From: Cyanobacteria bacterium T3Sed10_344R1
GTDB taxonomy: Bacteria > Cyanobacteriota > Cyanobacteriia > Phormidesmidales > Phormidesmidaceae
Direction: 5' to 3'
Assembly: GCA_003566335.1 (NCBI GenBank)
Contig: PXDR01000259.1
Coordinates: forward strand, 1-29,176
Length of the DNA: 29,176 nucleotides
In this document: one piece after another, positions 5,751 to 23,395 of the stretch
Position numbering within the stretch: the stretch's first letter is position 1
Layout: every line of letters begins with the position of its first letter
The notes under the pieces: generated by a model
What the model was told of the DNA's origin: nothing
What the model saw: only the letters and a program-made list of their open reading frames with translations
Database searches by the model: none
Made by a program: the position numbers and the translations under genes

Positions 5751-5796
5751 GGAGGCAGAGCCTCCCCGGTGTACCCAGACAGAGTCTGGGCACGAG
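5751..5796 (-). repeat. REP-like double hairpin upstream of the RAYT gene
   Basis: GGAGGC-AGA-GCCTCC and CCCAGAC-AGA-GTCTGGG; its reverse complement aligns with 5130-5175. Confidence 0.75.
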
Positions 5797-5840
5797 ATGG
5801 CACTTACAATAAGTACAACTCCATCGCTCGCAGGCAAACC

Positions 5841-6425
5841 ATGATGGCTCAGGTGTTCTCTCCCCGCATCCACGAGGCCCAGGTCTTCCCCAACGTGGGT
5901 TGGCCCCAGTTTGAGGCGATTGATCGAGCTTTTGATGCCATCCCCGGCGTGCGACTGCGCTACCTCGACAACGCCCTCGAAATCATGCCCATCAGTGAAG
6001 ATCACGAAGACTTCAAAGCCATTCTGCGGTTGCTGCTGGAGGCTTACCTGCGGGCCAACGGCATCCGATTTTATGCTCGCGGTGGCCCCTCCCTGGGGGA
6101 TGAAGCCCTGGGTGCCCGCAGCGAGCCCGACGAGGCCTACAACCTGGGTAGCCGCAAGCCCTACCCCGACCTGGTGCTGGAGGTGGTGATCACCAGCGGC
6201 GGCATCGACAAACTGGAAGGCTACCGTCGTATGGGAGTGGCCGAAGTGTGGTTTTGGGAAGACGGGGTGCTAAACCTCTACGGACTGCGGGACGACGGCA
6301 GCGGCTACGACCAGCTCAACCAAAGTCGGCTGCTGCCCGACCTGCCTCTGGATTTGCTCTGTCGCTACGTCACCTACCACGACCAGTTCGATGCGGTGGA
6401 TGAGTTTCTGCGGCAACTTAGCTAG
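5841..6425 (+). CDS. Uma2-family (DUF820) endonuclease-fold protein
   Basis: RLRYLDNALEIMPISEDHE, SEPDEAY, PDLVLEVVITS, GVAEVWFW. ATG at 5841 preferred over the track start 5769, which lies inside the REP. Confidence 0.88.
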   Translation: MMAQVFSPRIHEAQVFPNVGWPQFEAIDRAFDAIPGVRLRYLDNALEIMPISEDHEDFKAILRLLLEAYLRANGIRFYARGGPSLGDEALGARSEPDEAYNLGSRKPYPDLVLEVVITSGGIDKLEGYRRMGVAEVWFWEDGVLNLYGLRDDGSGYDQLNQSRLLPDLPLDLLCRYVTYHDQFDAVDEFLRQLS

Positions 6426-7246: not shown

Positions 7247-8104
7247 ATGGCCCAACTCACCATCACCCGCCACAAAGCAACCGCGCAATACTTCACCGAA
7301 GACCTGGGCGACGGCATCGGCCTGGATATGGTGCTCATCCCGGGCGGCACCTTTTTGATGGGGTCACCCGAGGACGAGCTAGATCGCTTCAACGACGAAG
7401 GTCCTCAGCACCAGGTGACGGTGCCCACTTTCTTTATGGGCAAGTTCTCCATCACCCAGGCCCAGTGGCGAGTGGTGGCCGAAACCTATGCTCAGGTAAA
7501 CCAGGAACTCGACCCAGACCCAGCAAGCTTCAAAGGCGACAACCGCCCAGTGGAGCAGGTGAGCTGGCAGGATGCGACGGAGTTTTGTGCGCGGCTGAGC
7601 CAGGACACCGGGCGCGAGTACCGTCTGCCCAGTGAGGCCGAGTGGGAGTACGCCTGCCGAGCCGGGACGACTACCCCCTTCCATTTCGGGGAGACCATTA
7701 CCACCGACCTGGCCAACTATCGCGGCGTGGACGATGACAGCATGGACTGGAAAGGCAACTACGGAAAAGGTCCCAAGGGCATTTACCGAAAAGAAACCAC
7801 AGAGGTCGGCAGCTTCCCCCCCAATGCCTTTGGCCTGTACGACATGCACGGCAACGTGTGGGAATGGTGCCAAGATCACTGGCACGACAACTACGACGGG
7901 AATCCGCCGACAGACGGCAGCGCATGGTTATTCTCTGACGAGAGAAAAGAGAAAGATGATCATACTCGCGTGTTGCGGGGTGGTTCCTGGGTCGACCTTC
8001 CGCGGTACTGCCGCTCTGCCTGTCGCCTCTACAACATTCCGGACGCCCGCTACAACAGCGACGGTTTTCGTGTTGTTTGTTCTGCCGCCAGGGCTCTTTC
8101 CTAG
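7247..8104 (+). CDS. Stand-alone FGE-sulfatase/CLec-fold protein, paralog of the C-terminal domain of 2402-5062
   Basis: [45 protein letters not shown]...GFRVVC; clear nucleotide similarity to about 4316-5062. Confidence 0.9.
7973..8104 (+). repeat. Candidate DGR variable repeat VR2
   Basis: Paired with 4931-5062; same codon-position-1/2 difference pattern and identical 3' block. Confidence 0.8.
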
Positions 8105-8304
8105 TCCTTTGCTCTATAGTACTGTTGCACTATACCCTTTCTTCTTTTCTCTCTTCTTTGGCGCGTAGCGCCTCAATTTTTTTTGGCATTTTTGGGGTTG
8201 TCTCAGCCAGCGTCAGTGTCAACAATATACATATTTGGTAGACAGCCCAGGGGCAATAATCTATATTTAGCGTTCAAGCGGCCATCTCCTCTCTCACCAT
8301 CACC

Positions 8305-8694
8305 ATGCCCCAATGGAAACTCTCAACCGAATTCACCTTTGACGCCGCCCACTCCATCCGCGACTACGATGGCCCCTGCGGGCGCATGCACGGTCACACC
8401 TACCGAGTCCGGATTGAGGCAACATCTAGCAAACTCCACTCCTCCCAGTACTGCCCCCACCCGGTCATGGTGGCCGACTTCCGCACCCTACGCTGGGCTA
8501 AACGCGACATGCTAAAAGGAGGGCTTGACCACTGCGTGCTCAACGACGTGCTGCCCGAAGGCTACGAAACCACCGCCGAGATGATCGCCCAGTACATCTA
8601 CGACAAAACCAAAACAGACCTGCCAGAAGGGGTGAAGCTCAAGGTTTGCGTCTCCGAGACACCCAACTCCTGGGCCGAGTATGAAGGCGACTGA
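8305..8694 (+). CDS. queD: 6-carboxytetrahydropterin synthase
   Basis: FTFDAAH, CGRMHGHTY, LDHCVLND, TTAEMIA, VSET; first gene of a queD-E-C run. Confidence 0.92.
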   Translation: MPQWKLSTEFTFDAAHSIRDYDGPCGRMHGHTYRVRIEATSSKLHSSQYCPHPVMVADFRTLRWAKRDMLKGGLDHCVLNDVLPEGYETTAEMIAQYIYDKTKTDLPEGVKLKVCVSETPNSWAEYEGD

Positions 8695-9343
8695 GATGAG
8701 CGTCCCGGCCACGACCTCTCTGATCGCTGAGTTGCCACCAGCGCTGGCCCAAACTTTGCCGATAGTGGAAATGTTCCATTCCATTCAGGGAGAAGGTGCC
8801 TGGGCCGGCACCAATGCCTTCTTCATTCGGTTAGGGGGCTGCGATGTCGGCTGTCCCTGGTGCGACACCAAACAGTCCTGGAGCCCGAAGCGCCACCCCC
8901 AGCGGGAGGTAGGCGAACTGGTCACCGCCGCCAAAGCCGCAAACCCTCAGATTGTAGTCATTACCGGCGGCGAGCCGCTGATGCATGACCTGACGGTGCT
9001 CACCCAGCAACTCAAAGCGGCTGACCTCCAGGTTCACCTGGAAACTTCCGGTGCCCACCCCTTCAGCGGCAGCTTCGACTGGGTCACCTTTTCCCCCAAA
9101 CGGTTCAAGCCCCCCCACCCCAGCATCTACCCCCAAGCCAGCGAACTCAAGGTCGTCGTCGCCGACGAGACTGACCTGGCCTGGGCCGAGCAGCAGGCGG
9201 CCCAACTGTCCCCAACCGTGGACAAACGACTCCAGCCCGAGTGGGAAACGCCGGGGAGTCAGCAGATTGCGTTCAACTTCGTCTTGAAGAATCCAGGGTG
9301 GCGCGTTAGCCTGCAAACGCATAAGTTCTTGGGAGTCCAATAG
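8681..9343 (+). CDS. queE: 7-carboxy-7-deazaguanine synthase (radical SAM); alternative start at 8696
   Basis: [26 protein letters not shown] (CxxxCxxC), [23 protein letters not shown]. Confidence 0.95.
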
Positions 9344-9345
9344 CC

Positions 9346-10068
9346 ATGCCCCAGCCCAAAGCGATTGTTCTGTTGTCGGGGGGGCTAGACTCAGCCACCG
9401 CCGCGGCCCAGGCCATGGCCGACGGCTACGCCCCCATCGCCCTCTCCTTCCGCTATGGCCAGCGCCACGAGCGGGTGCTGGAGGCGGCTCGCCACGTCGC
9501 CGCCCACCTGGGCATTGCCGCCCACCACATCATGGACGTGAACCTTGCCCAGTGGGGCGGATCTTCCCTCACCGACCTGAACGAGACCCTGCCCCAGGAC
9601 GGGGTACAGACCGGGGCGATTCCCTCCACCTACGTGCCAGGGCGCAACACCGTGTTCATTGCCATTGCCCTCTCCCTGGCCGAGGCCAAAGGGGCCGAGG
9701 CCATCTACCTGGGCATCAATGCTGTGGACTATTCGGGCTACCCCGACTGTCGGCCCGAGTATTTGGCGGCCTTTCAACAGCTGGCCCAGCTCTCCTCCAA
9801 GGCCGGGCTAGAGGGCAAAGCCCCTGAGCTAGTGGCCCCCCTAGTAATGGACTCTAAGGTCGATATCGTCCACCGTGCCCTCGGCCTGGGGGTACCCATC
9901 GAAAAAACCTGGTCTTGCTATGAGGGGGACGAGGAACCCTGCGGACGCTGTGATTCTTGCCGAATTCGCGACAAAGCCCTGATTGACGCCGGACGTCCCG
10001 ATCTGGCAACGTTGGTAGGCCGAAGACTATACGCCCAGGAGACCGAATGCCCAACCCCCGTGTCTTAG
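9346..10068 (+). CDS. queC: 7-cyano-7-deazaguanine (preQ0) synthase
   Basis: [41 protein letters not shown]. Confidence 0.96.
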
Positions 10069-12140
10069 TCATTACATCCTGCACTGGGGAGAAGCGCTGC
10101 AAGCCAGAAAACCAGCTCAGACTCGACGATTTTCGAGACCCAAGTCGGCTGCGCGATCGCCAATCTGAACTGGCCGAGTACGCCTGTCAAGCCGGTGAAA
10201 TATATACGGGTATGCAGCATCTACGGCTGATGGAGGGTGTCCAGGCGTTGCGGGAAGCTTTGGGAGTCGATGCATTGGAGGTCGAAATCCTCTCCGCTGG
10301 GTATGGGCTCATTCCAGAGCACCAGAAGATCGTCCCCTACGAGGTCACATTCAATGGGATGAAGAGCCAGGAGGTGGATGAGTGGGCACAACATTTGGGC
10401 GTCCAAGACGCGGTTGAGCAGCGACTGGAGTCGGCAGACCTGGTCTTTTTTTTGTTGGGTGATAACTATTTGCGATCGCTCCAACTGCCCATCCAAACCC
10501 GACCCGACCAAACCCTGGTTTTCCTGGCCTCCGGAGGTTCTGCCAAGAAGCTGCCCGACCTGGCCGCCAAGACGTTTGTGCTGCCCCTCTCCAACCAGGA
10601 GGCAAAGCGTTACCGATACGGTTTGGTAGGGCTGAAAGGCTTTCTCTTCAAGCAGTTTGCCGAAGCTGTGGTAGTTAAACCTGAATTACTGAATCAGGTC
10701 AAAACTAATCCAGAGATCTTTCAGCAGATTATCGACGGCGAAGTTGATCAGCCCTCTGAGCAGTTGGCTTTAACTTCTCTGCTAGACCAGGTACCCACTA
10801 CTCCTAAAGCCTCAAACACTAGCCAGAAGACAACAACTGGTCGGTCTAGCAAAGACGAATTCTTGCCCATTCCCGATGTGCCACCGGCAGCTAATATCCA
10901 CCTGGGAATGCAGTACTACATTCCAGAATGGGATGACCACGTAGACCCCAACTACGACTTCCTAAACGATCGCCTCACCCCAGGGCGTGATCCCCACCAC
11001 GATGAGGTCTATGCCCACCAGATCTACGACGCCCCCAACTACGACGGCATTCTGGTGTCGAAGGTGGTGGTGGACAGCAGCAAGAAAAAGCGAGCACGGG
11101 TCGAGGCAGTTGGCATCCACGACTTCATCCGATATCAGGGGCCGGTCATGGGTGACTGTGGAGCCTTTGGCTACGTCAAAGAGGAAGAGCCTCCTTACAA
11201 TACGGTCGAAATTCTGGACTACTACCAGAACCTTGGCTTTGACTATGGCGTTAGCATCGACCACCTAATCGTCGGTCCTTTTGCTGTACCTGGTATTCGA
11301 GAAAAGCGGTACGAGCTGACTATGAAGAACGCCCAGGAGTTCTTCGAGAAGCATCAGGCTGGGGACTACACGTTCACTCCCATAGGGGTCGCCCAGGGTT
11401 GGAACCCTGAAACCTATGCTGAATCGGTAAAAGAGAACATTCGCGTGGGGTACGACTACATTGCCCTGGGGGGGCTGGCCCGAGCCCAGAGCCGAGAAAT
11501 TGTGGAGATTATGCAGGAGGTGCGGCCCCACCTCACCCCCAACATTCGACTCCACCTGTTTGGGGTGGCTCGGATCAACGCGATTCCGGTATTTCGGCAT
11601 CTGGGCATTACTAGCTTCGACTCGGCCAGTCCCCTGCGGCGAGCCTGGTTGGGTTCTGGGGCAAACTACCACACTGTTTCCAGCAAGATGTATACGGCAG
11701 TGCGGATTCCGCCCGTGGATGGCCATGGGGTGCGGGTGAAGCGGTTGATCGAGGCGGGGGTGGCTGAACGGGACACGTTGAAAGGCCTAGAGCAGAAAGC
11801 GTTGAAGGCGCTGCGGGCCTTTGACCAGGGGGAGTTGGGCCTGGAAGAGGCCCTAGAGTCGTTGCTAGCCTACGACGAACTGCTGGAGCTGCCCAAGGAT
11901 GGCAAGGCTGACCCGGTGGAGCAGGCCAAGCGGCGAGTGAAGCATGAGCGCATGTATCGGGATTTGCTGCGCGATCGCCCCTGGCAGCAGTGCAACTGCG
12001 TGATCTGCCAGGAGGTCGGGGTCGAGGTGGTGATCTTTCGGGGGAACGATCGCAACCGGCGGCGGGGGTTCCACAATACCCGAGCCTTTTATCTGCGGTT
12101 TCAGGAATTGCTGGCGAAGCTGAAGGAAGAGGACACTTAG
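10047..12140 (+). CDS. dpdA: DpdA-type DNA 7-deazaguanine transglycosylase with an N-terminal DUF6884/YaaA-like domain
   Basis: TGT part: [83 protein letters not shown], as in bacterial DpdA. N-terminal ~230 aa: [25 protein letters not shown]. Overlaps queC by 22 nt. Confidence 0.85.
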
Positions 12141-12709
12141 GCGAGCTGGTTGAGGTTCTCGTAGAGATCGGCAATATCGCAGGTTAGGCCAATGCTGCTG
12201 AGTTCGATGGTGTCGCCGCTCCGAAAGACCTGGGGGAGCCACAGGTTGTCAGACTTGCGCTGGAACCGTTCGACCAAAATCTGCTTTTGGTGAACCAGCA
12301 CGTACTCTTCCAAGGTGGGTATAGCTTTGTAGTCGGAGAACTTATCGCCTCGGTCGAAGGCCTCGGTGGAGTCGGAGAGCACCTCGACGATGAGCTTGGG
12401 ATAGAGGATAAAGTCTTCAGCAGAGGCGCGATCGCGCTCATCGCAAGTAACTGCCAAATCCGGGTAGTAGAAGAGGTTAAGGCTGGGCAGGCGCACCTTC
12501 ATATCCACAGCGTAGGCAATGCAGCCGGTGCCCCGCAGATGGCTGACTAGGAGGGCCGAGAGATTGCCCGTGATGATGACATGGGCCTTGCTGGCCCTGG
12601 CCATAGCGACCATCTGCCCCTGTAAATACTCGTGCTTGATGGGGCTGATGCGCTCAAGTTCCAAATAGTCTTCTGGAGTGAAGTAGGCGTGGCTTTTGCT
12701 CAGGATCAT
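12137..12709 (-). CDS. Uma2-family (DUF820) endonuclease-fold protein
   Basis: EDYLELERISPIKHEYLQG, FYYPDLAVTCD, PKLIVEVLSDSTEAFDRGDKF, LEEYVLV. Confidence 0.92.
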   Translation of the reverse strand: MILSKSHAYFTPEDYLELERISPIKHEYLQGQMVAMARASKAHVIITGNLSALLVSHLRGTGCIAYAVDMKVRLPSLNLFYYPDLAVTCDERDRASAEDFILYPKLIVEVLSDSTEAFDRGDKFSDYKAIPTLEEYVLVHQKQILVERFQRKSDNLWLPQVFRSGDTIELSSIGLTCDIADLYENLNQLA

Positions 12710-12728
12710 GGCTCACTCTGCCTTAGGA

Positions 12729-12926
12729 CTACTCTGGCTCATTAATTTTATCGAGGTTGTGCTTCTCAATCAGTCGCTGCTGCTCCGGCTGGGCCAGCCA
12801 AAACTCAAGGGCTTCATTAAACAATTCAGAAATGCTGGTGTCCTTCAGCGCTGCTAACGTCTTCACCAGGGCCGCCTGATCTTCGTCAGCGAACACCCGA
12901 AACTCTGGTTTGCGTTTAGCACCCAT
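12729..12926 (-). CDS. Small ribbon-helix-helix/CopG-like DNA-binding protein
   Basis: Beta strand (PEFRVF) followed by two helices (DQAALVKTLAALKD, SISELFNEALEFWL). Confidence 0.6.
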   Translation of the reverse strand: MGAKRKPEFRVFADEDQAALVKTLAALKDTSISELFNEALEFWLAQPEQQRLIEKHNLDKINEPE

Positions 12927-13008
12927 TGCGACCTTGGCTTGGACTTCACATCTATTGTCCTACGTGGTAAATTAGATTACGGCATTGTGGCATTGTGGCA
13001 GTACAGGC

Positions 13009-13167
13009 ATGATTACTCTGACAACCGACGAAGTGGTTTTACTTAGGTCGCTTCTGACGGCACTTCGGGGCATTAAGGTTCGAGATATCGATCGGGCACT
13101 GGTGATTCTCAGCAAAAATGACAGCGGTAGATCGGCAACCCAAGATTCAGAAGGTGTTGACCCCTAG
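13009..13167 (+). CDS. Small hypothetical protein (52 aa from ATG 13009)
   Basis: Amphipathic helical sequence ITLTTDEVVLLRSLLTALRGIKVRDIDRALVILSK; fills the gap between the RHH and Xre genes. No family recognised. Confidence 0.35.
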   Translation: MITLTTDEVVLLRSLLTALRGIKVRDIDRALVILSKNDSGRSATQDSEGVDP

Positions 13168-13168
13168 G

Positions 13169-13738
13169 CTACGGACTGCCCAGCAGCCGCTCTAAGGCTG
13201 GGAAAAGGAGCTGAAGGGTTTTGCCGTCGATGGATTGGATGCGATCGCACAACCACCGTCGCCGCCCCACCAGATCGGCTGGGGTCGGCGATAGAAAGAG
13301 CGGTTCCGTGTCCAGATCCACCGAGTGCAGCTCAAAAATTTGTCGGAGTTTGGCCTGGTGGGTCTTCTCCGGCACATGCTCCCGTTTCTTCCACTTGGAG
13401 AGGGTGCCCGGCGTAACGCCCAGGGCCTCGGCCAGTTCACCGTTCTCCCCCCGTTGGAGAGTCGAGAGTAGGTACAGCACGTTCTCTTGCCAGAGGTTGA
13501 GCCCACTGTCAGCCAGCAGGTTAGCGAACTGGAGGTCTTCCTCAGGGAGGCCCAGGGCAGTGGCCAGCGATCGCAGCTCCTTCACCGTCGGCTGGCTGCC
13601 CTTCAGGAGTTCGACAGATCTACCGGCATCGGCACCCACCCACTCAGCCACTCGCTCAGCCCAAATCTGCCGGGGCTGCCCTTGTCGCCACATCAAAAAA
13701 CATAGGTTGTGGGCGACAGTGCTCATCGCTAGCAACAA
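13169..13738 (-). CDS. Xre/Cro-like helix-turn-helix regulator, probably with two HTH-like units
   Basis: ELAEALGVTPGTLSKWKK is a typical Xre HTH; PTVKELRSLATALGLPEEDL is a second Xre-like segment; divergent from the helicase operon. Confidence 0.7.
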   Translation of the reverse strand: MLLAMSTVAHNLCFLMWRQGQPRQIWAERVAEWVGADAGRSVELLKGSQPTVKELRSLATALGLPEEDLQFANLLADSGLNLWQENVLYLLSTLQRGENGELAEALGVTPGTLSKWKKREHVPEKTHQAKLRQIFELHSVDLDTEPLFLSPTPADLVGRRRWLCDRIQSIDGKTLQLLFPALERLLGSP

Positions 13739-13823
13739 AATCTCTCAAACTTATTTGATGTTGAAGCTTCTAAACGACAAAAATACTGCATAATTTTTGT
13801 GTTTACCAGCCTACGGTCATCCT

Positions 13824-16181
13824 ATGATAGCCAGTCCTCCCCAATTCAGCGCATCTGCTGTGGCCACCCCGGTCCAGCAGGCAGTCCTGGATCGGGATCT
13901 GCTCAATTCTGGTTTTCACTGCATCCTGCAAATGCCCACGGGCAGCGGCAAAACCTGGCTGGCTGAGCAGGCCATTGGGCACACCCTGGCCCAGGGGAAG
14001 CGGGCCATCTATCTCACCCCCCTACGAGCCCTGGCCGATGAGCTGTGCGATCGCTGGCAGCGGCGCTTTGTGTCCCACCCGGTGGGCGTCTTTACTGGCG
14101 ACTACGCTAGCGGCCAGTATCCCGTCTCCTTCCAAAACGCTCAGCTGCTGGTGATGACGCCAGAAAAGCTGGATGCCTGTACTCGCCATTGGCGATCGCA
14201 CTGGAGTTGGCTCCCCACCGTCGATCTGATTGTGGTAGACGAGTTTCACCTGCTGGGCGACCCCAACCGAGGCCCCCGCCTAGAGGGGGCGCTGCTGCGG
14301 ATGCTGCGCCTCAACCCGTTCCTGCGTATTTTGGGACTCTCGGCTACCCTGGGCAATCGGGTGGAGTTAAGTGACTGGCTGGGAGGGGTAGAGTACGCAT
14401 CGAGCGATCGCCCTATTCCCCTCCAGTGGTCTACGGTCCACTACAAAAAGGCTGACGACAAACCGGCTCTACTGCTGCGGGAGGTGCGGCGTAACCTCGC
14501 CCAGGGCGGCAAAAGCCTTGTCTTTGTGCAGAGTCGTCGCCGAGCGGAGGCCCTGGCCAACCAGCTCCAGGACGCTGGCCTGCGGGTGACCCACCACCAC
14601 GCTGGGTTAGACCACCAATCTCGCCGCCAAGTGGAATCGGACTTTCGCACGGGTCAGCTTGACGTCCTGGTGGCCACCGCCACCCTAGAGATGGGCCTGA
14701 ACTTGCCCGTGCGCCAGGTTATCCTCTACGATCTGCAGGGCTTTGATGGGCAAGACTTTGTGCCGTTGCCGGTCAATAGTGTGTGGCAGCGGGCAGGCCG
14801 AGCCGGTCGCCCGGGCCTGGATAAGTTCGGCGAAGTGGTGCTGATTGCCCCCATCTGGGGACAGGTGGGGCACTACCCCCAAGGCCAATTCGAGCCGCTG
14901 GTGTCTGGGCTGAGTCAGCCTGCGGCTCTGGCCGAACAAATTGTGACCGAGGTGGCCTGCGGCCTGAGCTGTACTGAGGCGCAGCTAGCGGCTAACTTTA
15001 GCCATAGCCTGGCAGCTCGGCAGGGCCGACTGTCCTCCATCCGCCAGCTAGTGGACGAGATGCTGACGGCGGGCATGTTGACCACGGTCGAAGATGGGCG
15101 ACGCATCCTGCTGCGGGGCACTCGGCTGGGCCACGTTGCGGTGCGCCACATGCTGCGGCCCCAGACAGTGCTGCTTTTTCGGCGGGTGTTAGAGCAGTAT
15201 CCCCAGCTCACGTTTCTAGACTTGCTGCTGGTGGCGGCCAGCAGTTCCGACTGCCAGCCTCTGATTCCGGTGGACTTCGAGCAGCTCGACGATCTGGCGG
15301 AGGCTCTCGGTGAAGAACCGTCTGTACTGCTGTCGTTGTCGGAGGTGGGCCTGACACAACTGCTGGGTATTGAGGGCAAACGTCTGCTGGCCGCTATCCA
15401 AACGGCCTTGGTGGGCCGCACCTGGACTCGGACCGGCGATGGGGCGATCGCCGCCGAAACCCACGGCTGCTATGCCTTTGAGGTGCAACGGCTGCGAGAC
15501 TCGTTACAGCGACTGTTGGCTGCCATGGTCGATTTGTGGTCCGTCTCCCAAGAGGGGGAGGTGCCTCCCTCGGAGGGACCGTCGCTGCTGGAGCAGATGC
15601 GGGTACTGGAGAAGATGGTGGCCTGCGGCCTAGATGAGCAGGCCGTGACCCTGACCATGGTGCCCGGACTAGGGGCAAAGCTGGCCCGGCAGCTCAAGGA
15701 AGCTGGTATCCAAGATGTGGAGGATTTGGCCCTGACTGATCCCAGCGACCTACTGGCGGTGCCGGGGGTGGGGCAAAAGCGGGCTGAAAGCTGGTTAGCT
15801 GCCGCTGAGGAGATGGTCGATGGGCACCTTTCGGCGTTTCGCTACCGAGAAGAGGCTTCAGCGAACCGGTTCTGCCCTTCTGACTGGCCCCCCGACGTTG
15901 ACCCATACCGGCTTCGGCGCGCCTTGGACTTAAAGGTAGTCGGACAGGATGGCAATCTGTTCCGCGTTGTGGGGGGGCTTGATCCTCACATCGTGTGGTT
16001 TCGTCAGGGTGGGTTTGTGTGCGACTGCCCCGATTCTAAGCGCCACACCTGTAAGCACATTTTACAGGTGCGGCTGTTTCGGGGAGACGCCCAACTGCGC
16101 CGCCTGGCCCAGGCCTTGTCCGCAGAGAGCAACCCAGACACCCTCGATATCTATAGTCTGTGGTGGAGGGGGAACCGATGA
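13824..16181 (+). CDS. Ski2/Hel308-like SF2 helicase with C-terminal HhH repeats and a SWIM-like zinc finger
   Basis: MPTGSGKT, PLRALA, VDEFH, LSATLG, HHAG, ATATLEMGLNLP, QRAGRAGR; VPGLGAKLARQL / VPGVGQKRA (HhH); CDCPDSKRHTCKH (SWIM-like). ATG 13824 preferred over TTG 13797. Confidence 0.88.
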   Translation: MIASPPQFSASAVATPVQQAVLDRDLLNSGFHCILQMPTGSGKTWLAEQAIGHTLAQGKRAIYLTPLRALADELCDRWQRRFVSHPVGVFTGDYASGQYPVSFQNAQLLVMTPEKLDACTRHWRSHWSWLPTVDLIVVDEFHLLGDPNRGPRLEGALLRMLRLNPFLRILGLSATLGNRVELSDWLGGVEYASSDRPIPLQWSTVHYKKADDKPALLLREVRRNLAQGGKSLVFVQSRRRAEALANQLQDAGLRVTHHHAGLDHQSRRQVESDFRTGQLDVLVATATLEMGLNLPVRQVILYDLQGFDGQDFVPLPVNSVWQRAGRAGRPGLDKFGEVVLIAPIWGQVGHYPQGQFEPLVSGLSQPAALAEQIVTEVACGLSCTEAQLAANFSHSLAARQGRLSSIRQLVDEMLTAGMLTTVEDGRRILLRGTRLGHVAVRHMLRPQTVLLFRRVLEQYPQLTFLDLLLVAASSSDCQPLIPVDFEQLDDLAEALGEEPSVLLSLSEVGLTQLLGIEGKRLLAAIQTALVGRTWTRTGDGAIAAETHGCYAFEVQRLRDSLQRLLAAMVDLWSVSQEGEVPPSEGPSLLEQMRVLEKMVACGLDEQAVTLTMVPGLGAKLARQLKEAGIQDVEDLALTDPSDLLAVPGVGQKRAESWLAAAEEMVDGHLSAFRYREEASANRFCPSDWPPDVDPYRLRRALDLKVVGQDGNLFRVVGGLDPHIVWFRQGGFVCDCPDSKRHTCKHILQVRLFRGDAQLRRLAQALSAESNPDTLDIYSLWWRGNR

Positions 16182-17110
16182 CCCAAACCAGCGTGGGCAC
16201 TCAACGGGGGCGATCGCTCTCAACGGCTCGGGGCAAAATACCTTTTCCGGCGTACCTGCCCGTCACCACCTTTGGCAAAAAGTATCCCCTCGACGACCTC
16301 ATTCGTCCCTACCTGCCTCGGCTAGCGGCGGCGGTTATGGTGAGCTACTACTATGCCCAGCAAATGGAGCCGGAGCAGCGCCCCAACCTGCCGATGTGGG
16401 TAGACTCTGGGGGCTTTGCTGCTCTGTTTGAGGGGGCCAAGATTCTCAAGAAGAGGGACGTTGGACTACTGGAGATCACCAACGGCGATGTGGTTGAGAG
16501 TCTTCACCCCAAGGATATTCTGGCGTTTCAGGAGGCTCATGCCGATGTGGCCCTGACCCTAGACTTTCCCATTCCCCCCAGCCTGGGTCTAAAGGAGAGC
16601 CAGCGGCGGCAGCGGCTAACGATCGCCAACGCGCTCTGGGCCCTGGCCAATCGTCGTCGCCAAGACCTGCGGCTCTACGCCTGCATCCAAGCCTGGGATG
16701 TGGCCTCGGCCCAGGCCTGTGCCGAGGCCTATGCTGGGAAGGGATTTGATGGGGTGGCCCTGGGCGGCCTAGTGCCTAGGGCCAAGGATGCCGACTTGGT
16801 GCTATCTATGGTGCGTGCCGTGCGGGAGGTCGTTGGAGATCTACCGATCCATGTATTGGGCTTAGGTAATCCCAAACTGTTGACACAGATCTACGAGGCC
16901 GGAGCCGACTCGGTAGACAGTAGTTCCTACGTTCAGTACGCCGCCAACGGTCGGCTTTGGTCTAACCCTAATCTGGAGCTGAAGGATCCCTCACCCACGG
17001 ATCGGCTGCACCTGGCTTTGTGTAATCTAGCTCTGGCGACAGGGCGGACACTTCCCCTTTCGGCGGCCCAACTGACCTTTGCTACGCTACGGTCAGCACA
17101 GGGGGGGTAA
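16178..17110 (+). CDS. tRNA-guanine transglycosylase-fold protein (archaeosine-TGT-like catalytic barrel only)
   Basis: VDSGGF, TLDFPIPP, CIQ, VALGGLVP, IHVLGLG, GADSVDSSSYVQYA. ATG 16178 overlaps the helicase TGA (ATGA), with a GGAGG upstream. Confidence 0.85.
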   Translation: MTQTSVGTQRGRSLSTARGKIPFPAYLPVTTFGKKYPLDDLIRPYLPRLAAAVMVSYYYAQQMEPEQRPNLPMWVDSGGFAALFEGAKILKKRDVGLLEITNGDVVESLHPKDILAFQEAHADVALTLDFPIPPSLGLKESQRRQRLTIANALWALANRRRQDLRLYACIQAWDVASAQACAEAYAGKGFDGVALGGLVPRAKDADLVLSMVRAVREVVGDLPIHVLGLGNPKLLTQIYEAGADSVDSSSYVQYAANGRLWSNPNLELKDPSPTDRLHLALCNLALATGRTLPLSAAQLTFATLRSAQGG

Positions 17111-17115
17111 AGGCT

Positions 17116-19440
17116 ATGCGTTCTATCTTCTGCGGCACATCGGGCACCGACCCTCATCCTGGGCCTTTGGGTTGGGATGGGCTCGACCTCAGTGCTCCCT
17201 GGCCTGCGGTGTTGGATCTGCTGTGTCCCCAGCGATCGCTGCGCCCAGTACAGTGGGCCGCCCTGAGCGACCACCAGATTCTGGAGACTAACCAAAACCT
17301 GATTGTCTCCGCGCCGACCAATAGCGGTAAAAGCTTAGTGGGTTGGCTGATTTTGCTGGAGGCTTTGTGTCAGGGGAAGCGGGCCATTTTGCTGGAACCT
17401 CTGCGGGCACTGGCTCGGCAAATGGCCGATGAGCTGGAGGTGGCGTTGCCGAAGCTCAACCTCATTTTCGAGAAACGCTCGAATCTGAAAATCTCCACCG
17501 GTGACTACCGCATGGACGATGAGTTACCCTTTGGGCCACCTCCAGGGGGGGAGCTGGTGGTAGCAACCCCAGAGCGACTAGAATCCCTATTGCGGAACCC
17601 AGCCAATGGGCCATGGTTTGAGACGGTGGGGGCGGTTTGTGTGGATGAGGCTCACCTGATCAGCTCGCCCAGGCGGGGACCGACGCTGGAGTACTTGCTG
17701 ACCTCGTTGCTGTGTTTGCCGGTTCCTCCCCGTTTGGCGTTGCTGTCGGCGACGTTGGGTAATGTGGAACGGGCGCAGACCTGGCTGGCTCCTTGCTCGG
17801 TGGTCAGTGTGACCGAACGGCAGCCGCCCCTGGAGAAGTGGGTGGTGGCGTTGGAGGAGGGGGAAGATGCCAACGAGGTGGCGATCGCCCACGTTGCCGA
17901 GACCCTGAAAACGGCTGAAGCCCAAATCCTTATCTTTGTCTATCAGACTCAGTCGGCCCAGAAGCTGGCCCAAGCGATCAACGGCACGGTGGAGGGGGCC
18001 AACGCCCTGGCCTACCATGGCCAGATGAGCCAGGGGCAGCGGCAACAGGTGCAGCAGGCGTTTCTAGCGGGGGAGAGTCGTGCGATCGTCACCACGACTG
18101 CCCTGGCGCTGGGGATGAACTTACCTGCGACCCATGTCCTGATCCGCGATACCACTTTCCCGGGGGTAGGTCGGCTCGATAGCGCAGAGCTGTTGCAGAT
18201 GATGGGGCGAGCGGGCCGGGGTACCCAATCGGGAAAGGCGACTGTGCTGCTGCGTCCCAACGATAGCTGGGCAGAGGCGGATCTGGTGGCAGCGCTGCAG
18301 GCGGAGGTGCTGCCGAACTTTGCCTCGGCGTTTGAGCTAACCAGCAGGCGGATGGCCCAGGGACCACTGCCGTCCGGTACGGCTCAGGTGGCCGCTTTGC
18401 TCTCCCGCCATCCCGAAACGGGACTTTCTCAACCGTCTATCGGCCAGTTTTTGGAGAAGTCGTTGGGGGGACAGACCCTGGTTGGGCAGGTGCCGGCGGC
18501 CCTGCGGTGGCTGGAGTCGGAGACGCTAGCGTACCTAGAGCCCAACCAAAAGACTTACCACCTCACTGTCCTGGGCCAACGAGCAACCCTGGCTGTTTTG
18601 CCTCTGCCGCTGGCCGCTGGGTTGGCTCGCCTGCTGCGAGACTTGATGACGATTGACCCGGAAGATGGGTTGTTGGCGGACTGGCGATCTCTGGACCATC
18701 TGCTGGTATTGGATCTGCTGTCGGAACAGACGCCTAACCTACGTCGCTATAGCGGAAAGCTGGCTAGCCAACTGGAGAGTTGGTGCGAGGCGAACCCTAG
18801 CCAAACGCCACTACTCTTTCGCAAATGGATCTGGGGGACGGTGGGCCAGTCTCGGGCGGCGGAGATTTTGGGGTCGTTGGGAGTCGTGGCTGAGAAGCCT
18901 GGCCAAGGGACTGACCAATGGGCGCACCAGATGGGCTACCTGGCGATGCTGCGGGCTATGGTGCTGGGGCTGCGATCGCAGGGGGTTCCCATTGCTCAGC
19001 TAGAGCGACAGTACGGCCTCAAAAATCTGGAGGGCATCGAGGAACGCTGGCGCGACGATATGCTCTGGAAGTTGTCTGGGGTGGCTAAGCTGCTGGAAAT
19101 TCGCACGTTCTACTATCATCTAAAGGAAGACTGCCAGGCCAGTCCGGAACGGGTGAAGCGGGTGAAGCGATGCCTGAAGCGGCTGCGTTACCAGACCTAC
19201 GAGTTGCGGGAAGGGCTCAAGTACTGTTCTCCACTCGGCCACTTGCTGAGCGACATTCGCCGCATGCTGCCCCATCAAGAGCGAAAACTGGGAGTCCAGT
19301 CGATCCGCAGGTTGGAAGAGGCTGGTTTGTGTACTCCTCAGGCTGTTGTTGCCTTGGGTGTAGAAGATCTCAAACGACTTGGCTTAAGTAGCCTTTTCTC
19401 CCAGCAGATCGTTGCTTACTTCAAGTCACGCTTTCGCTAA
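17116..19440 (+). CDS. Second Ski2/Hel308-like SF2 helicase
   Basis: APTNSGKS, PLRALA, VDEAH, LSATLG, YHGQ, TALALGMNLP, QMMGRAGR; 5 nt after the TGT stop. Confidence 0.88.
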   Translation: MRSIFCGTSGTDPHPGPLGWDGLDLSAPWPAVLDLLCPQRSLRPVQWAALSDHQILETNQNLIVSAPTNSGKSLVGWLILLEALCQGKRAILLEPLRALARQMADELEVALPKLNLIFEKRSNLKISTGDYRMDDELPFGPPPGGELVVATPERLESLLRNPANGPWFETVGAVCVDEAHLISSPRRGPTLEYLLTSLLCLPVPPRLALLSATLGNVERAQTWLAPCSVVSVTERQPPLEKWVVALEEGEDANEVAIAHVAETLKTAEAQILIFVYQTQSAQKLAQAINGTVEGANALAYHGQMSQGQRQQVQQAFLAGESRAIVTTTALALGMNLPATHVLIRDTTFPGVGRLDSAELLQMMGRAGRGTQSGKATVLLRPNDSWAEADLVAALQAEVLPNFASAFELTSRRMAQGPLPSGTAQVAALLSRHPETGLSQPSIGQFLEKSLGGQTLVGQVPAALRWLESETLAYLEPNQKTYHLTVLGQRATLAVLPLPLAAGLARLLRDLMTIDPEDGLLADWRSLDHLLVLDLLSEQTPNLRRYSGKLASQLESWCEANPSQTPLLFRKWIWGTVGQSRAAEILGSLGVVAEKPGQGTDQWAHQMGYLAMLRAMVLGLRSQGVPIAQLERQYGLKNLEGIEERWRDDMLWKLSGVAKLLEIRTFYYHLKEDCQASPERVKRVKRCLKRLRYQTYELREGLKYCSPLGHLLSDIRRMLPHQERKLGVQSIRRLEEAGLCTPQAVVALGVEDLKRLGLSSLFSQQIVAYFKSRFR

Positions 19441-19477
19441 AAACTATGTGTTGATCAACTTGCAACTAAGTAGTAGC

Positions 19478-19483
19478 TATAAT
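19478..19483 (+). promoter_or_regulatory. Possible -10 element upstream of the 383-aa ORF
   Basis: Perfect TATAAT 41 nt upstream of ATG 19525; no correctly spaced -35 seen. Confidence 0.3.
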
Positions 19484-19524
19484 CCTAATCTTTAGTTTTC
19501 ACTGACACCTCTGAGCATTAAGAC

Positions 19525-20676
19525 ATGACAATCGATCGCATAAAAGAGCTGGAAGTCTTCTTGAATCGCAACTACTCCAAATACTTGAAGCTTCATGATA
19601 AGTGGTTCAGGAGTGATTGGGCTGCCAATGACTTCACTGAAGAAAGCTTTGTCTTCTTCAATGAAATTACATGCTTGAAAGTGGTTAACCCGCATGTAAA
19701 ATTACTTATCTCGAATATATGGCCTATCGATCAGAATTTCCACAACTTTTTATTAGAACTCTGTTCATACAGTCTCAGTATCAAGCGCCCAGACAGTGCC
19801 AGATATGATTTTGAGCGCATGAAATTCGTTAATTGGTGCATGATTGCCTACTGGCTAGCCTGGTATGAGCTTGTCGAAATTGAACTAGAGCCTTTAAGAC
19901 TTCTGAAAATACCAGTAAACAAGTATAACTTAGATCTTCGGCTTTTAGCGCTTGAGGCTAAGGTATTAGAACACGCTAGCTGGAATAAGATAAAACAAGA
20001 AAATCATCACCGTTATTCTCCGCTTTGGCAGAAAAACTTTGAGTCATCCGCACTTAAAGCAAAAGTTTTACATCGGATGCTGAAGATTGCAAAGGAATTT
20101 CACAAATATTATAAAATATCTCCAGATCGCGCCTTTCGGATTTGGCGTTTATGCATATTGGAGATTCGGGAAGATGACAGAGATGCCACTCTTCAACCAT
20201 CTCAGCCTAAAAACAAGCTTCAGGATGGGATCGAAAAAACATATAAAATACTAAAATCTGGCAAGAACCCGTTTGAGCCAAATGAGAAAACGAAGTATTT
20301 ATACGTTTTTTTCAGTCTCACCGAAAAAATCTTGGATGGAAAAAGCTTTCCGGCTAAGAAGTCAGGAGCATTTCAGGGTGATTTTTGGAAGCCGTTCTTG
20401 AAAGGAGTACTTAAGTTCACCCAGTTTTCCGAGGAGGATTCACCTAATCGGATCCCCTACGAGGTTAAAGATGCTCAGCTAAATAGACGACAGGGTAAAA
20501 GTCTATATAGAGTTCCCGTCCTAGATAGAGAGAGGCCTCGCTCAGCGGTAACGTCTTTCAGGATTCCTGGAAGGAGTATTGAAGGTAAGTTCGAGGTTCC
20601 GCTACCCCATAGAGCAGCTAGGGTTTTTGCTGTAGAGCATACTTCTGACCTTTCTGGAGACGATTACACTCCATAA
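19525..20676 (+). CDS. Hypothetical protein (AT-rich, no recognised family)
   Basis: 383-codon ORF in AT-rich DNA, unlikely by chance, followed by a terminator. Confidence 0.7.
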   Translation: MTIDRIKELEVFLNRNYSKYLKLHDKWFRSDWAANDFTEESFVFFNEITCLKVVNPHVKLLISNIWPIDQNFHNFLLELCSYSLSIKRPDSARYDFERMKFVNWCMIAYWLAWYELVEIELEPLRLLKIPVNKYNLDLRLLALEAKVLEHASWNKIKQENHHRYSPLWQKNFESSALKAKVLHRMLKIAKEFHKYYKISPDRAFRIWRLCILEIREDDRDATLQPSQPKNKLQDGIEKTYKILKSGKNPFEPNEKTKYLYVFFSLTEKILDGKSFPAKKSGAFQGDFWKPFLKGVLKFTQFSEEDSPNRIPYEVKDAQLNRRQGKSLYRVPVLDRERPRSAVTSFRIPGRSIEGKFEVPLPHRAARVFAVEHTSDLSGDDYTP

Positions 20677-20732
20677 AGTACGCAAGCTTACCTAGTAGCC
20701 GCAACCAGTCAACCTAAGGATTATTTTTCTAG

Positions 20733-20764
20733 AGCCTCGCAAGTCAATGCGGGGCTTTTATTTT
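20733..20764 (+). terminator. Rho-independent terminator
   Basis: Stem AGCCTCGCA / TGCGGGGCT (one G-T pair), 6-nt loop, then TTTATTTT. Confidence 0.75.
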
Positions 20765-20939
20765 AAGCGGCACAATCTACGGTAAGCCACCGGAGATTGT
20801 GAAGGCCTTTGACAGCAAGGGTTTCAGGGTTTACTACTTTTTTTGTTCAAATTTCCAGGCTTAAACCCTAGAGTACTTTCAGTATCTTCCAGGGTTCGTT
20901 TATTACCCTCTGGAGCTGTTCAAGCAATAGGAGAGACAA

Positions 20940-21344
20940 GTGAGTTGTAATTTTGAGTTGGCCACAACAGAGCAAGCCGCAGAAGTCCTAGGGTGTTCCA
21001 CGCACTGGCTCAAGAAACGTCGGCTCGACGGACAGCTACAGGAAGGAGTCCACTGGGTGCGAACTAATCAACGATCTATTCGCTACATAACGCCTCTCCT
21101 TAAGGACTACTTGAACAACAGAAACCAATTTTCAACCCATCGACAGTTTATTGTGAGCGACTTGATTTCTGATATTCCTTCTCTTAGCCCAAAAAACTAC
21201 AGCTATAGGAATAAAATTTTCGAGGTCATAAAGATTGCCAAAAAGATTCTTTTGCGTACAAGATTCCAAAAACATTCTTTTTTGAGGTTAGCTTGCCAGT
21301 CCAAATTCAAAAAACTCTTTCAGGCTATTTTTCGAATTATCTGA
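20940..21344 (+). CDS. Excisionase/MerR-like HTH protein, paralog 1
   Basis: LATTEQAAEVLGCSTHWLKKRRLDGQLQEGVHWVR; GTG start with AGGAGAG upstream. Confidence 0.65.
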   Translation: MSCNFELATTEQAAEVLGCSTHWLKKRRLDGQLQEGVHWVRTNQRSIRYITPLLKDYLNNRNQFSTHRQFIVSDLISDIPSLSPKNYSYRNKIFEVIKIAKKILLRTRFQKHSFLRLACQSKFKKLFQAIFRII

Positions 21345-21375
21345 GTTCAAGAAAATTACTACCTACCACAAAAAA

Positions 21376-21666
21376 ATGATGACTCAAGAATTTCAATTAG
21401 CTACAGCGAAACAATCTGCAGAACAATTAGGTTGTTCAGTTCACTGGCTGAAAAAGCTACGTCTTGACGGAAGGCTTCAGGAAGGCATCCATTGGGTGCG
21501 AATTGGCAAGCGATCAGTTCGCTACGTAACCCCTCTTCTAGTAGACTACTTTCGAAATCGACACCAACCTTCGGTTCACCAACATTTTGTCGAAAAATAC
21601 GTCGCTTCTTGGGAGTCGAATCAACCGAGTAGACCTGGTCGAAAGCCAAAGGCTTATAGAGCTTAA
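21376..21666 (+). CDS. Excisionase/MerR-like HTH protein, paralog 2
   Basis: LATAKQSAEQLGCSVHWLKKLRLDGRLQEGIHWVR; aligns without gaps with paralog 1 over about 65 aa. Confidence 0.7.
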   Translation: MMTQEFQLATAKQSAEQLGCSVHWLKKLRLDGRLQEGIHWVRIGKRSVRYVTPLLVDYFRNRHQPSVHQHFVEKYVASWESNQPSRPGRKPKAYRA

Positions 21667-21775
21667 ACGTATAACCCCTCAATACTTCTTTCGATAGGGA
21701 CTATCTACCTCCCTATCGAATCTTTGTTGCGTCATAAGTGTCTGAGCTATACAGCCTAATTCTGAAATCAGTCCC

Positions 21776-23086: not shown

Positions 23087-23395
23087 TGAAATAAGGGAAG
23101 TTTACACCAGAAAAAAATAATGAAGTGTTTTGCCCTCCGCAGGGAGGTAAAGGAATGAAGTGCAGGGGGGATGAACAGAGGATGTGATCTATACGTGGAA
23201 CAGGTGTAAAGGCCAGAAAAATCGTCGATTTGTTTGAAAAATTAGTTTTCGCAAGACCTTTCAGCTTGCGTGAACCTTGTCTGAGCCTGGCGCAGAGATA
23301 AATAAGACATCGTTGCGGTCAATAACGAAAGGGCTGCGTTTTACTCTACCTCTTGGTACCTTGTATCGTTAGCGGTACTAGAACAGAGGTTCTGG

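Follow-up and report, generated by a model that had tools for sequence, protein, structure and literature searches.

To our knowledge, Dpd is the only bacterial restriction-modification system that is based on 7-deazaguanine. Its biochemistry rests on a single example, from Salmonella, in which DpdA is strictly dependent on the DpdB ATPase.

The Dpd system of Salmonella enterica serovar Montevideo (dpdA to dpdK; PMC10164549, 7UI4) resembles the locus described here in its DpdA-type transglycosylase, with the same catalytic aspartates and zinc site, in its DpdC-family enzyme, and in having preQ0 genes adjoining the writer within a helicase- and nuclease-rich island. However, in the window (the whole stretch of 29,176 nt that was analyzed), DpdC and DpdA are a single polypeptide and no DpdB was found. 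The island in the window also lacks orthologues of dpdD to dpdK and instead contains a helix-turn-helix (HTH) regulator, two Hel308-like helicases around a short TGT, a NurA-like/HerA pair, and UvrD. Its helicases match the NCBIfam models for DpdE (32 bits; cut-off, 500) and DpdF (31.5 bits; cut-off, 550) at the level of generic helicase similarity only, and none of the PADLOC models for DpdD, DpdG, DpdH, DpdI, DpdJ, or DpdK was listed for the window ORFs scanned (for the helicases, among the best 25 families).

Phage DpdA systems (PMC6884629, PMC10516641) likewise have que genes grouped with a DNA transglycosylase that needs no DpdB. However, in the phages a large fraction of the G bases is modified and DpdC-type domains are missing, whereas the window encodes a domain of the bacterial DpdA type by NCBIfam, with no match to the phage-type DpdA family Pfam PF23859 (TGT and DUF6884 were the only matches of the fusion at E ≤ 0.01). 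PF23859 annotates a gene in a Nostoc locus (L013). The BREX-related capture (BRC) systems (HerA/FtsK, GNAT, TGT; PMC12839542) share a TGT-family enzyme and a HerA-type translocase with the window; their TGT occurs without DpdB or DpdC, and another NTPase has been proposed as the DpdB replacement (PMC12839542). Unlike BRC systems, the window has no PglZ, BrxC-like, STAND, or GNAT genes, encodes a DpdC domain, and has Ski2/Hel308-like helicases as the partners. The type I cyanobacterial DpdC::DpdA islands (Desmonostoc L019, Myxacorys L005, L003, and G229) encode fusions 56 to 64% identical to that of the window, with queD or queDEC upstream and UvrD/PDDEXK or other helicase/nuclease genes downstream. 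They carry a conserved protein of ~293 aa and a DndB-family gene but no short TGT cassette, whereas in the window the cassette is present and a DndB gene absent.

The reading that we favor, with a probability of roughly 0.7, is that queDEC and dpdC::dpdA write dADG, that DpdB is most likely absent, that a motor encoded by the island probably replaces it, and that the rest of the island is restriction-like.

Operon structure and supply of preQ0

The operon and the signals preceding it are as follows.

8160 to 8182, plus strand: terminator-like hairpin and T-run closing the upstream FGE-sulfatase gene (consensus scan only)
8239 to 8267, plus strand: sigma-70-like promoter, TAGACA-17-TATATT, 38 nt 5′ of queD (10 of 12 consensus matches; consensus only)
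8305 to 8694, plus strand: queD, 6-carboxytetrahydropterin synthase, 129 aa
8681 to 9343, plus strand: queE, radical-SAM 7-carboxy-7-deazaguanine synthase, 220 aa (alternative start at 8696)
9346 to 10068, plus strand: queC, 7-cyano-7-deazaguanine (preQ0) synthase, 240 aa
10047 to 12140, plus strand: dpdC::dpdA fusion gene, 697 aa

All four ORFs are codirectional, and their coordinates, family matches, and junctions agree with the original prediction of four overlapping or abutting genes. The queD and queE genes overlap by 14 nt or, with the in-frame ATG at 8696 as the start of queE, lie 1 nt apart; queE and queC are separated by 2 nt; and queC overlaps the fusion by 22 nt, with a GGAG located 7 nt 5′ of the fusion ATG. 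The queD product matches Pfam PTPS (6e-30) and NCBIfam QueD (4.8e-21) and has the CxxxHGH motif, read as CGRMHGH. That of queE matches Pfam Radical_SAM (2e-09), and its top five NCBIfam matches are all QueE models, all under the curated cut-offs; QueC is matched by Pfam QueC (2.3e-71) and TIGR00364 (222.6 bits; cut-off, 150.3). Relatives at 57 to 86% identity, in at least six genomes, keep both the gene order and the 22-nt queC/fusion overlap, which indicates that the arrangement is not due to chance. No preQ1 riboswitch or other RNA element was found near the operon (positions 7500 to 14000 were scanned). The four genes would be transcribed as a unit, and their products would place a 7-deazaguanine mark in the host's own DNA.

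Neither queF nor folE had been recognized in the window originally, and family-profile scans likewise found none in its 29,176 nt; both were located on other contigs of the same assembly (folE on C251 and C256, queF on C294). With queD, queE, and queC in the operon, the preQ0 pathway is thus complete by genes, and FolE, QueD, QueE, and QueC together would yield free preQ0. The island queC is a single-copy gene and the sole queC found in the assembly, as is the island copy in Oscillatoria CS-180 and in Calidithermus, and queF and a tRNA tgt are present in these genomes. These observations would fit queDEC being housekeeping preQ0 genes for tRNA queuosine, with an incidental position beside dpdC::dpdA. 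We consider that explanation highly improbable: the retention of the overlap and gene order noted above speaks against it, as do the presence of the que genes with the fusion in Calidithermus and Spirosoma and a second queC elsewhere in one genome (G047). Dual use of queDEC is more likely than accidental placement.

Domains of the fusion protein

The fusion consists of three parts.

10047 to 10751, plus strand: DpdC-family domain (DUF6884, YaaA-like fold), residues 1 to 235
10752 to 10904, plus strand: low-complexity, poorly conserved linker, residues 236 to 286
10905 to 12140, plus strand: DpdA DNA-guanine transglycosylase domain, residues 287 to 697 plus the stop codon

The C-terminal domain matches the NCBIfam DpdA equivalog NF041059 at 485.4 bits (cut-off, 200; residues 288 to 687) and aligns end to end with Salmonella DpdA (PDB 7ui4; 1.4e-89). 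Asp95 and Asp256, which are essential in the Salmonella enzyme (PMC10164549), correspond to D370 and D525 of the fusion, the base-binding Asp130 corresponds to D405, and Gly206/207 correspond to G475/G476. All of these residues, along with the zinc ligands C649, C651, C654, and H676, are conserved without exception in 34 fusions; at the position of Salmonella DpdA H181, the fusion has Q450. The domain would swap DNA guanine for preQ0 via the TGT double-displacement mechanism, and in the proposed exchange D525 would act as the nucleophile and D370 would serve as general acid/base. The linker had been called low complexity, and it proved to be disordered and poorly conserved over approximately residues 236 to 286: pLDDT is below 50 from residue 236, and its columns contain no consensus residues in the alignment of 34 fusions.

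The extra N-terminal domain, expected to be ~230 aa, is indeed ~235 aa long and is modeled by AF2 with a pLDDT of 91. No dpdC had been seen nearby, but the gene had been looked for as a PAPS-reductase-like one, a description that we rejected, as it applies to DndC, a protein of the dnd system; DpdC resembles DUF328/DUF6884, and the N-terminal domain itself belongs to the DpdC family. It matches Pfam DUF6884 (PF21818; 1.5e-11, 45 bits against a cut-off of 30) and the PADLOC DpdC models PDLC02818 (3.1e-08), PDLC02815 (4.3e-07), and PDLC02817 (2.2e-05); the PADLOC matches are modest (~31 bits) and cover just the first half of the profiles. The top PDB match of the model is YaaA (5caj; 8.4e-06), and comparison with 5caj and UPF0246 proteins gives a probability of 1.0 and TM scores of 0.37 to 0.46. 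DpdC has been placed under DUF6884 (bioRxiv 10.1101/2025.02.24.639861) and under DUF328/YaaA (PMC5699537; PMC12839542). CxxxK and LSAxxG are the family motifs, and the YaaA-like fold belongs to a DNA-binding protein (PMC11701544). In the fusion the motifs are C12-K16 (CxxxK) and L82-S-A-G-Y-G87 (LSAxYG), and C12, K16, S83, A84, Y86, and G87 are invariant, with ~37 positions of the domain, both motifs included, invariant across the 34 aligned fusions.

DUF6884 is functionally diverse and includes proteins with other proposed roles, e.g., YfjM. Unfused DUF6884 proteins are 45 to 67% identical to the domain, and the gene for one of them directly precedes a TGT gene in a cluster that also contains Pfam DpdG. 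In Nodularia, the TGT gene 68 nt downstream of a “standalone DpdC” encodes just 288 aa, and the pair may be a broken fusion; it was counted only as evidence for siting in a cluster that resembles a canonical dpd cluster.

Since the fused domain is of the DpdC family, the expected end product is dADG and not just dPreQ0. The original idea of a dPreQ0 writer thus stands in part: the locus looks like a writer of 7-deazaguanine into DNA that is supplied by queDEC genes of its own, with dADG as the expected mark. On the basis of its sequence, we designate the gene dpdC::dpdA and predict dADG as its product, the N-terminal domain being held on a flexible tether from which it would hydrate the nitrile on DNA. 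The domain might instead be a DpdC relative with lost or altered chemistry (a DNA clamp, a base flipper, or another hydrolase), in which case the DNA would carry dPreQ0 or another derivative. The weak, partial PADLOC matches, the diversity of DUF6884 members, and the slightly different base pocket implied by Q450 would be consistent with such a change. However, the invariance of ~37 positions, including both motifs, argues against it, and for two consecutive steps on the same DNA base, fusion to DpdA would be the expected arrangement. We regard altered chemistry as unlikely.

Searches for a DpdB partner

Salmonella DpdA, the closest solved relative, requires DpdB and ATP (PMC10164549). Profile scans agree with the earlier statement that the window has no dpdB, and a genome-wide search, which the original prediction had proposed, found none in the MAG either (69.5% complete). 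NF041060 and PDLC02811 also miss the DndB-family partners of other fusions and are uninformative alone, so the search was redone with Pfam DndB and tblastn. No DndB/DpdB was detected in the window or the 69.5%-complete MAG with NF041060, PDLC02811, or PF14072, nor did two cyanobacterial DndB proteins used as tblastn queries match the MAG. A hidden ParB/DndB-like protein among the unknowns of the island was also considered and rejected for the small gene, which encodes an HTH_3 protein; the ~590-aa, ~423-aa, and ~293-aa island proteins had no significant Pfam match and, where scanned, no PADLOC match.

The fused domain was originally proposed to stand in for DpdB or to add DNA binding in a compact writer of dPreQ0 only, with no DpdC activity. 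The failure to find DndB/DpdB in the window or MAG fits the first of these roles, and the YaaA-like fold, known from a DNA-binding protein (PMC11701544), fits the second. However, this explanation appears very unlikely, since the domain is of the DpdC family with invariant candidate active-site motifs and, in Pfam, NCBIfam, and PADLOC scans, has no ATPase motif and no similarity to ParB/DndB. Furthermore, many cyanobacteria have a DndB-family gene right next to the same fusion; such a neighbor occurs in 11 of the 13 fusion genomes that have no short TGT gene. In one protein, the DpdC and DpdA domains are followed by a third region at the C terminus that is weakly DndB-like. Both observations argue against the domain being a substitute for DpdB.

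A second explanation is that DpdB is present and required but encoded in the ~30% of the genome that is unassembled, in which case the system would be a usual DpdA/B/C writer apart from the fusion of A to C. The MAG is fragmented (643 contigs; median, 4 kb) and dpdB could sit in unassembled DNA; in G358, whose fusion is 81% identical, the fusion, short TGT, and DndB module are on three different contigs; and 11 of the 13 fusion genomes without a short TGT gene have a DndB-family gene. All three points favor a missed DpdB. However, an orthologous DndB/DpdB is lacking in four of the five high-quality genomes that share this island type, and none was detected in G342 (99% complete), G337 (97%), or Spirosoma. 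The nearest relative, Oscillatoria CS-180, is 100% complete with a syntenic island whose fusion is 86% identical, and its sole DndB (28% identical), in an unrelated locus, was rejected as the missing DpdB: it is 25 to 29% identical to the fusion-linked DndB group, the members of which are 64 to 84% identical among themselves, and it neighbors MoxR/vWA and ParA/ParB genes. A missed DpdB is thus improbable, although less so than the proposal of the preceding paragraph. A DndB-family DpdB is most likely truly absent from this island type, and, judging from these genomes, the writer very probably works without a canonical DpdB.

The wider island and its possible roles

Downstream of the operon, the window contains the following genes.

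12137 to 12709, minus strand: Uma2-family endonuclease gene, convergent and overlapping the fusion stop (Pfam Uma2, 8.5e-36)
13169 to 13738, minus strand: small conserved HTH (Xre/Cro-type) protein, divergent from the helicase cassette (HTH_3, 4.4e-06)
13797 to 16181, plus strand: Hel308/Ski2-like helicase with HHH_5 domain (linked module; domain matches and synteny)
16160 to 17110, plus strand: short second TGT-family transglycosylase (sTGT), 316 aa, no zinc motif (linked module; Pfam TGT, 3.2e-20)
17116 to 19440, plus strand: second DEAD/DEAH helicase (linked module; domain matches and synteny)
23396 to 24616, plus strand: NurA-like protein (linked module; weak Pfam NurA match, 0.0026)
24626 to 26413, plus strand: HerA-type ATPase (linked module; DUF87, 2.4e-13)
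26621 to 28984, plus strand: UvrD-like SF1 helicase (linked module; UvrD-helicase, 7.3e-48)

The second TGT gene (16160 to 17110, between the two helicases) and the wider island did not figure in the original prediction. The short TGT has DSGGF and VDSSS motifs. The Uma2 gene is present in Oscillatoria CS-180, is absent at the same position in L016 to L018 and L025, and is probably a passenger.

Synteny shows that the system is not compact, as had been thought, but that the operon is one part, the writer arm, of an island of >20 kb. In seven loci, the HTH gene and the helicase/sTGT/helicase cassette lie downstream of the fusion; the HTH protein, a candidate controller, has homologues in the corresponding place of seven other loci (E, 1e-23 to 1e-51). 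The NurA-like protein is 41% identical to the product of the gene directly 3′ of the Spirosoma fusion, the HerA-type ATPase is 61% identical to the Spirosoma copy and 77% identical to that in L018, and UvrD homologues are also found in the islands of type I and of Spirosoma. Spirosoma has the complete set of genes, such that the operon is linked to the rest of the island in both cyanobacteria and Spirosoma. Four of the related contexts came from the related-locus search and most from contig and genome searches.

Under the favored reading, the operon would be the writer arm of a conserved island that also comprises the HTH regulator, the helicase/short TGT/helicase cassette, the NurA-like/HerA pair, and UvrD. 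One of the ATP-driven motors of the island would probably take over from DpdB in making DNA accessible to DpdA, and the remaining genes would form a restriction-like arm. Within the order, genomes with the short TGT are a subset of those with the fusion (4/4 versus 4/136). The idea of a helicase in place of DpdB is drawn from a complementary distribution among related, non-independent genomes.

A more far-reaching proposal, which we hold only tentatively and think less probable than an even chance, is that the island represents a second, cross-phylum architecture for 7-deazaguanine restriction-modification. The fusion would write dADG without DpdB, and the cassette of two helicases and a short zinc-less TGT would replace the DndB-family module, either as a loader that uses ATP to open the DNA so that bases can be exchanged or as a transglycosylase reader/eraser by which unmodified DNA is marked. 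Destruction of this DNA would then fall to NurA-like/HerA and UvrD, with the Xre-type controller timing both arms.

The DpdC::DpdA fusion is common in databases, and no discussion of it was found in the papers that our literature search covered. The GATOR-GC survey demanded dpdA and dpdB together (10.1101/2025.02.24.639861), so that islands like the one in the window would have gone uncounted in it. As a widespread natural fusion found in two contexts, one with a DndB-family partner and the other with a helicase-flanked second transglycosylase, it offers a handle on the job of DpdB and on what can substitute for it. If the reading is correct, a dADG writer that consists of one polypeptide and brings its own preQ0 genes would also serve as a handy means of introducing this modification into DNA in other hosts.

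Organization of the queDEC-dpdC::dpdA operon

Four co-directional ORFs, listed below, occupy positions 8305 to 12140 of the window, which is all of C196, the longest contig in a fragmented cyanobacterial MAG (3.17 Mb, 643 contigs, median 4 kb, 69.5% complete).

Features of the operon
8160-8172, terminator-like hairpin upstream of queD
8239-8267, promoter-like site upstream of queD
8305-8694, + strand, queD (PTPS, 6e-30)
8681-9343, + strand, queE (radical SAM; all best NCBIfam matches are QueE models)
9346-10068, + strand, queC (TIGR00364, 222.6 bits; cutoff, 150.3)
10047-12140, + strand, dpdC::dpdA fusion, 697 aa (ORF and domain matches)

There is a 14-nt overlap between queD and queE (a 1-nt gap if queE starts at an in-frame ATG at 8696), queE and queC are 2 nt apart, and queC overlaps the fusion gene by 22 nt, with a GGAG 7 nt 5' of the fusion ATG. 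No riboswitch was detected near the operon. Relatives at 57 to 86% identity keep the genes in this order, with queC again overlapping the fusion gene. The four-gene linkage described in the original prediction is upheld.

Residues 288 to 687 of the fusion match the NCBIfam DpdA equivalog at 485 bits (cutoff, 200) and align end to end with the structure of Salmonella Montevideo DpdA (7ui4; E = 1.4e-89), through which residue roles from PMC10164549 were mapped. The general acid/base Asp95 and the nucleophile Asp256 of the Salmonella enzyme correspond to D370 and D525, Asp130 corresponds to D405, and Gly206/207 correspond to G475/G476. These residues, along with the ligands of a CxCxxC...H zinc site (C649/C651/C654/H676), are invariant across 34 fusion proteins. 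His181 is replaced by Gln (Q450), which is likewise invariant across the 34 fusions. Judged by sequence, the C-terminal part of the fusion is a genuine DpdA of the bacterial type.

The most useful correction to the original prediction concerns dpdC, which it had reported as missing and which is present as the fused N-terminal domain. Residues 44 to 160 match Pfam DUF6884 (PF21818) at 45 bits (cutoff, 30), and three PADLOC DpdC models align with residues 5 to 151, each over no more than its first half (best E = 3.1e-08). DpdC has been classed under DUF6884 in the GATOR-GC preprint (10.1101/2025.02.24.639861) and under DUF328/YaaA elsewhere (PMC5699537, PMC12839542). Pfam (PMC11701544) names two motifs for the family, CxxxK and LSAxxG, which are found here as C12-TGE-K16 and L82-SAGYG87; C12, K16, S83, A84, and G87, as well as about 30 further positions of the domain, do not vary among the fusions. 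A confident AlphaFold2 model of residues 1 to 245 (pLDDT 91, pTM 0.89) shows a folded domain up to about residue 235 and disorder beyond it. Its best match among solved structures is E. coli YaaA (5caj; E = 8.4e-06, probability 1.0), the best-matching Swiss-Prot models are all UPF0246/YaaA proteins, and TM-scores of 0.37 to 0.46 indicate that the modeled domain is a diverged version of the YaaA fold. We rejected the description of DpdC as PAPS-reductase-like, which fits DndC of the phosphorothioation system. The gene is best named dpdC::dpdA, and dADG is the expected end product.

Unfused DUF6884 proteins, 45 to 67% identical to the N-terminal domain, are common in cyanobacteria. In Nodularia (L022:10001-11757), such a gene lies just 5' of a TGT gene of only 288 aa, and the pair may be a broken fusion; in Richelia (L021:10001-10735), the TGT gene is no longer present, and the site is flanked by transposases. 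Both clusters resemble canonical dpd clusters (SNF2 and DEAD helicases, Pfam DpdG, and an AAA_22 protein), and both loci look like decaying or split fusions.

Distribution of the fusion and its island types

More than 100 database proteins (685 to 750 aa, 55 to 86% identity), mostly cyanobacterial, contain both domains and are labeled simply "DpdA" by NCBI. The fusion was found in about 7 of 293 high-quality cyanobacterial genomes sampled and, outside the cyanobacteria, in Calidithermus (58%) and Spirosoma (41 to 44%). No paper found by our literature search, outside which the two founding papers fell, mentions it; the fusion is common in databases and undiscussed in the literature searched. 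In two genomes of the window's order it contains one in-frame TAG (G349:C1:80468-82525 and G359:C599:3736-5793), and a third (G390:C18:50419-54459) retains the N-terminal domain alone (237 aa), next to a DndB gene interrupted by an in-frame TAA. These stop-interrupted and truncated copies suggest that the writer decays in some lineages.

The original prediction also noted no dpdB nearby, and two DpdB models, Pfam DndB, and tblastn likewise revealed no DndB/DpdB gene in the window or the 69.5%-complete MAG. Because absence from such a MAG alone proves little, other fusion carriers were compared and sorted into two island types. Type I islands have, after the fusion, a conserved protein of ~293 aa, a divergent DndB-family gene, and either a very large DEAD helicase with a PLD protein or UvrD with PDDEXK (loci L003, L005, L019, and L007). 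The type I DndB proteins (64 to 84% mutual identity) match the Pfam and PADLOC DndB models and not the enterobacterial DpdB models, so they are DpdB analogs by family and position only. In type II, seen in the window, Oscillatoria CS-180, loci L016, L017, and L018, and genome G342, a small divergent HTH_3 gene comes after the fusion, and then a cassette in which a Hel308-like helicase with HHH_5 precedes, and a second helicase follows, a short TGT of about 310 aa that lacks the zinc motif. In a tree of 14 fusions, the cyanobacterial type II sequences form two strongly supported sets, and those of type I plus Calidithermus form one weakly supported set.

Spirosoma spitsbergense has a single ~27-kb island with que-like genes, the fusion, NurA-like (41% identical to that of the window), HerA (61%), PDDEXK, UvrD, and a ~590-aa protein, followed by helicase 2, the short TGT, helicase 1, and the HTH gene. 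In Calidithermus, the fusion is accompanied by queDEC and a YhhQ-type transporter.

Several further features of these islands were observed. A ~590-aa gene just 3' of helicase 2 is conserved in L017 and L018 and missing from the window, where an AT-rich block (19441-23380; GC, 41 to 45% versus 55 to 63% around it) lies between helicase 2 and the NurA-like gene; its ORFs have no significant family match, and two have marginal HTH_17 (excisionase-type HTH) matches. The C terminus of helicase 1 (13797-16181; residues about 745 to 765) contains a CxC...CxH pattern, VCDCPDSKRHTCKHIL, which was read by eye and resembles a SWIM zinc finger; Pfam reported none. Two Uma2-family endonuclease genes are found in the window (5769-6425, +, and 12137-12709, -). 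The second is convergent with the fusion, overlaps its stop codon, and occupies the same spot in Oscillatoria CS-180; it is absent from the other type II loci and is therefore probably a passenger. In Nostoc sp. MS1 (L013:10001-12798; AP023442.1), in a region that resembles a plasmid or prophage, a short-TGT homolog (62% identical) adjoins a DnaB helicase gene, with DNA methylases, DUF1392 genes, and a Pfam PF23859 DpdA gene nearby and neither of the two flanking helicases present. A 1,205-aa metagenomic protein (P0067; L020:6092-9709) combines DUF6884, TGT, and a weakly DndB-like C-terminal region (PADLOC DndB, 1.4e-04) and may hold all three modification functions in one chain.

Apparent alternative partners of the writer

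Within the window's order, the fusion is present in 4 of 4 short-TGT genomes versus 4 of 136 without the short TGT (Fisher P = 5e-06, for genomes that are related and not independent). A DndB-family gene occurs in 11 of 13 fusion carriers without the short TGT, usually within 1 to 43 kb, versus 1 of 5 high-quality short-TGT carriers (G358, on a separate contig; Fisher P of about 0.02, again for related, nonindependent genomes); Oscillatoria CS-180 (100% complete) is one of the four counted as lacking it, its sole DndB being 25 to 29% identical and in an unrelated locus. No DndB was found in G342 (99% complete), G337 (97%), Spirosoma, or the Calidithermus genome. We put the probability that DpdB is truly absent here at about 80%, and one and the same writer seems to have two alternative partners, the DndB module and the helicase/short-TGT cassette. 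The fused domain had been proposed as a possible stand-in for DpdB, which is not borne out, since type I islands keep both; the point of most interest is what takes the place of DpdB. One genome, G358, has both partner modules. An 18-kb contig that lacks the fusion holds the DndB-family gene, the ~293-aa partner, and a big DEAD helicase (L023, G358:C12, 8013-17389); queDEC and the fusion are on a second contig and the short TGT is on a third.

preQ0 supply and proposed mechanism

As originally noted, the window lacks folE and queF; both are located on other contigs (folE on C251 and C256, queF on C294). The preQ0 pathway is therefore complete, and preQ1 is made in the cell as well. No queC besides that of the island was found in the assembly, and the sole copies in Oscillatoria CS-180 (G313 C63:28219-28827) and Calidithermus (G303 C3:243232-243840), both of which have tRNA tgt and queF, likewise adjoin the fusion. 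Thus, the island que genes probably serve both tRNA queuosine and DNA modification and are not purely dedicated. The only preQ0 pathway of the cell appears to lie on a mobile defense-type island.

Enzyme identities, catalytic-residue conservation, and linkage are directly supported. By analogy with Salmonella biochemistry (PMC10164549), the DpdA domain would swap G for preQ0 via a covalent Asp-DNA intermediate, and the DpdC domain to which it is tethered would turn dPreQ0 in DNA into dADG. The distribution of linked genes is consistent with an ATP-driven motor of the cassette that may provide access to duplex DNA in place of DpdB, with NurA-like/HerA/UvrD as a putative restriction-like arm, and with the Xre-type protein between both arms as a candidate controller. 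The original prediction stands in part, for its four linked genes and some of its interpretation, and the dpdC::dpdA locus is a variant form within the known Dpd system and not a separate kind of system.
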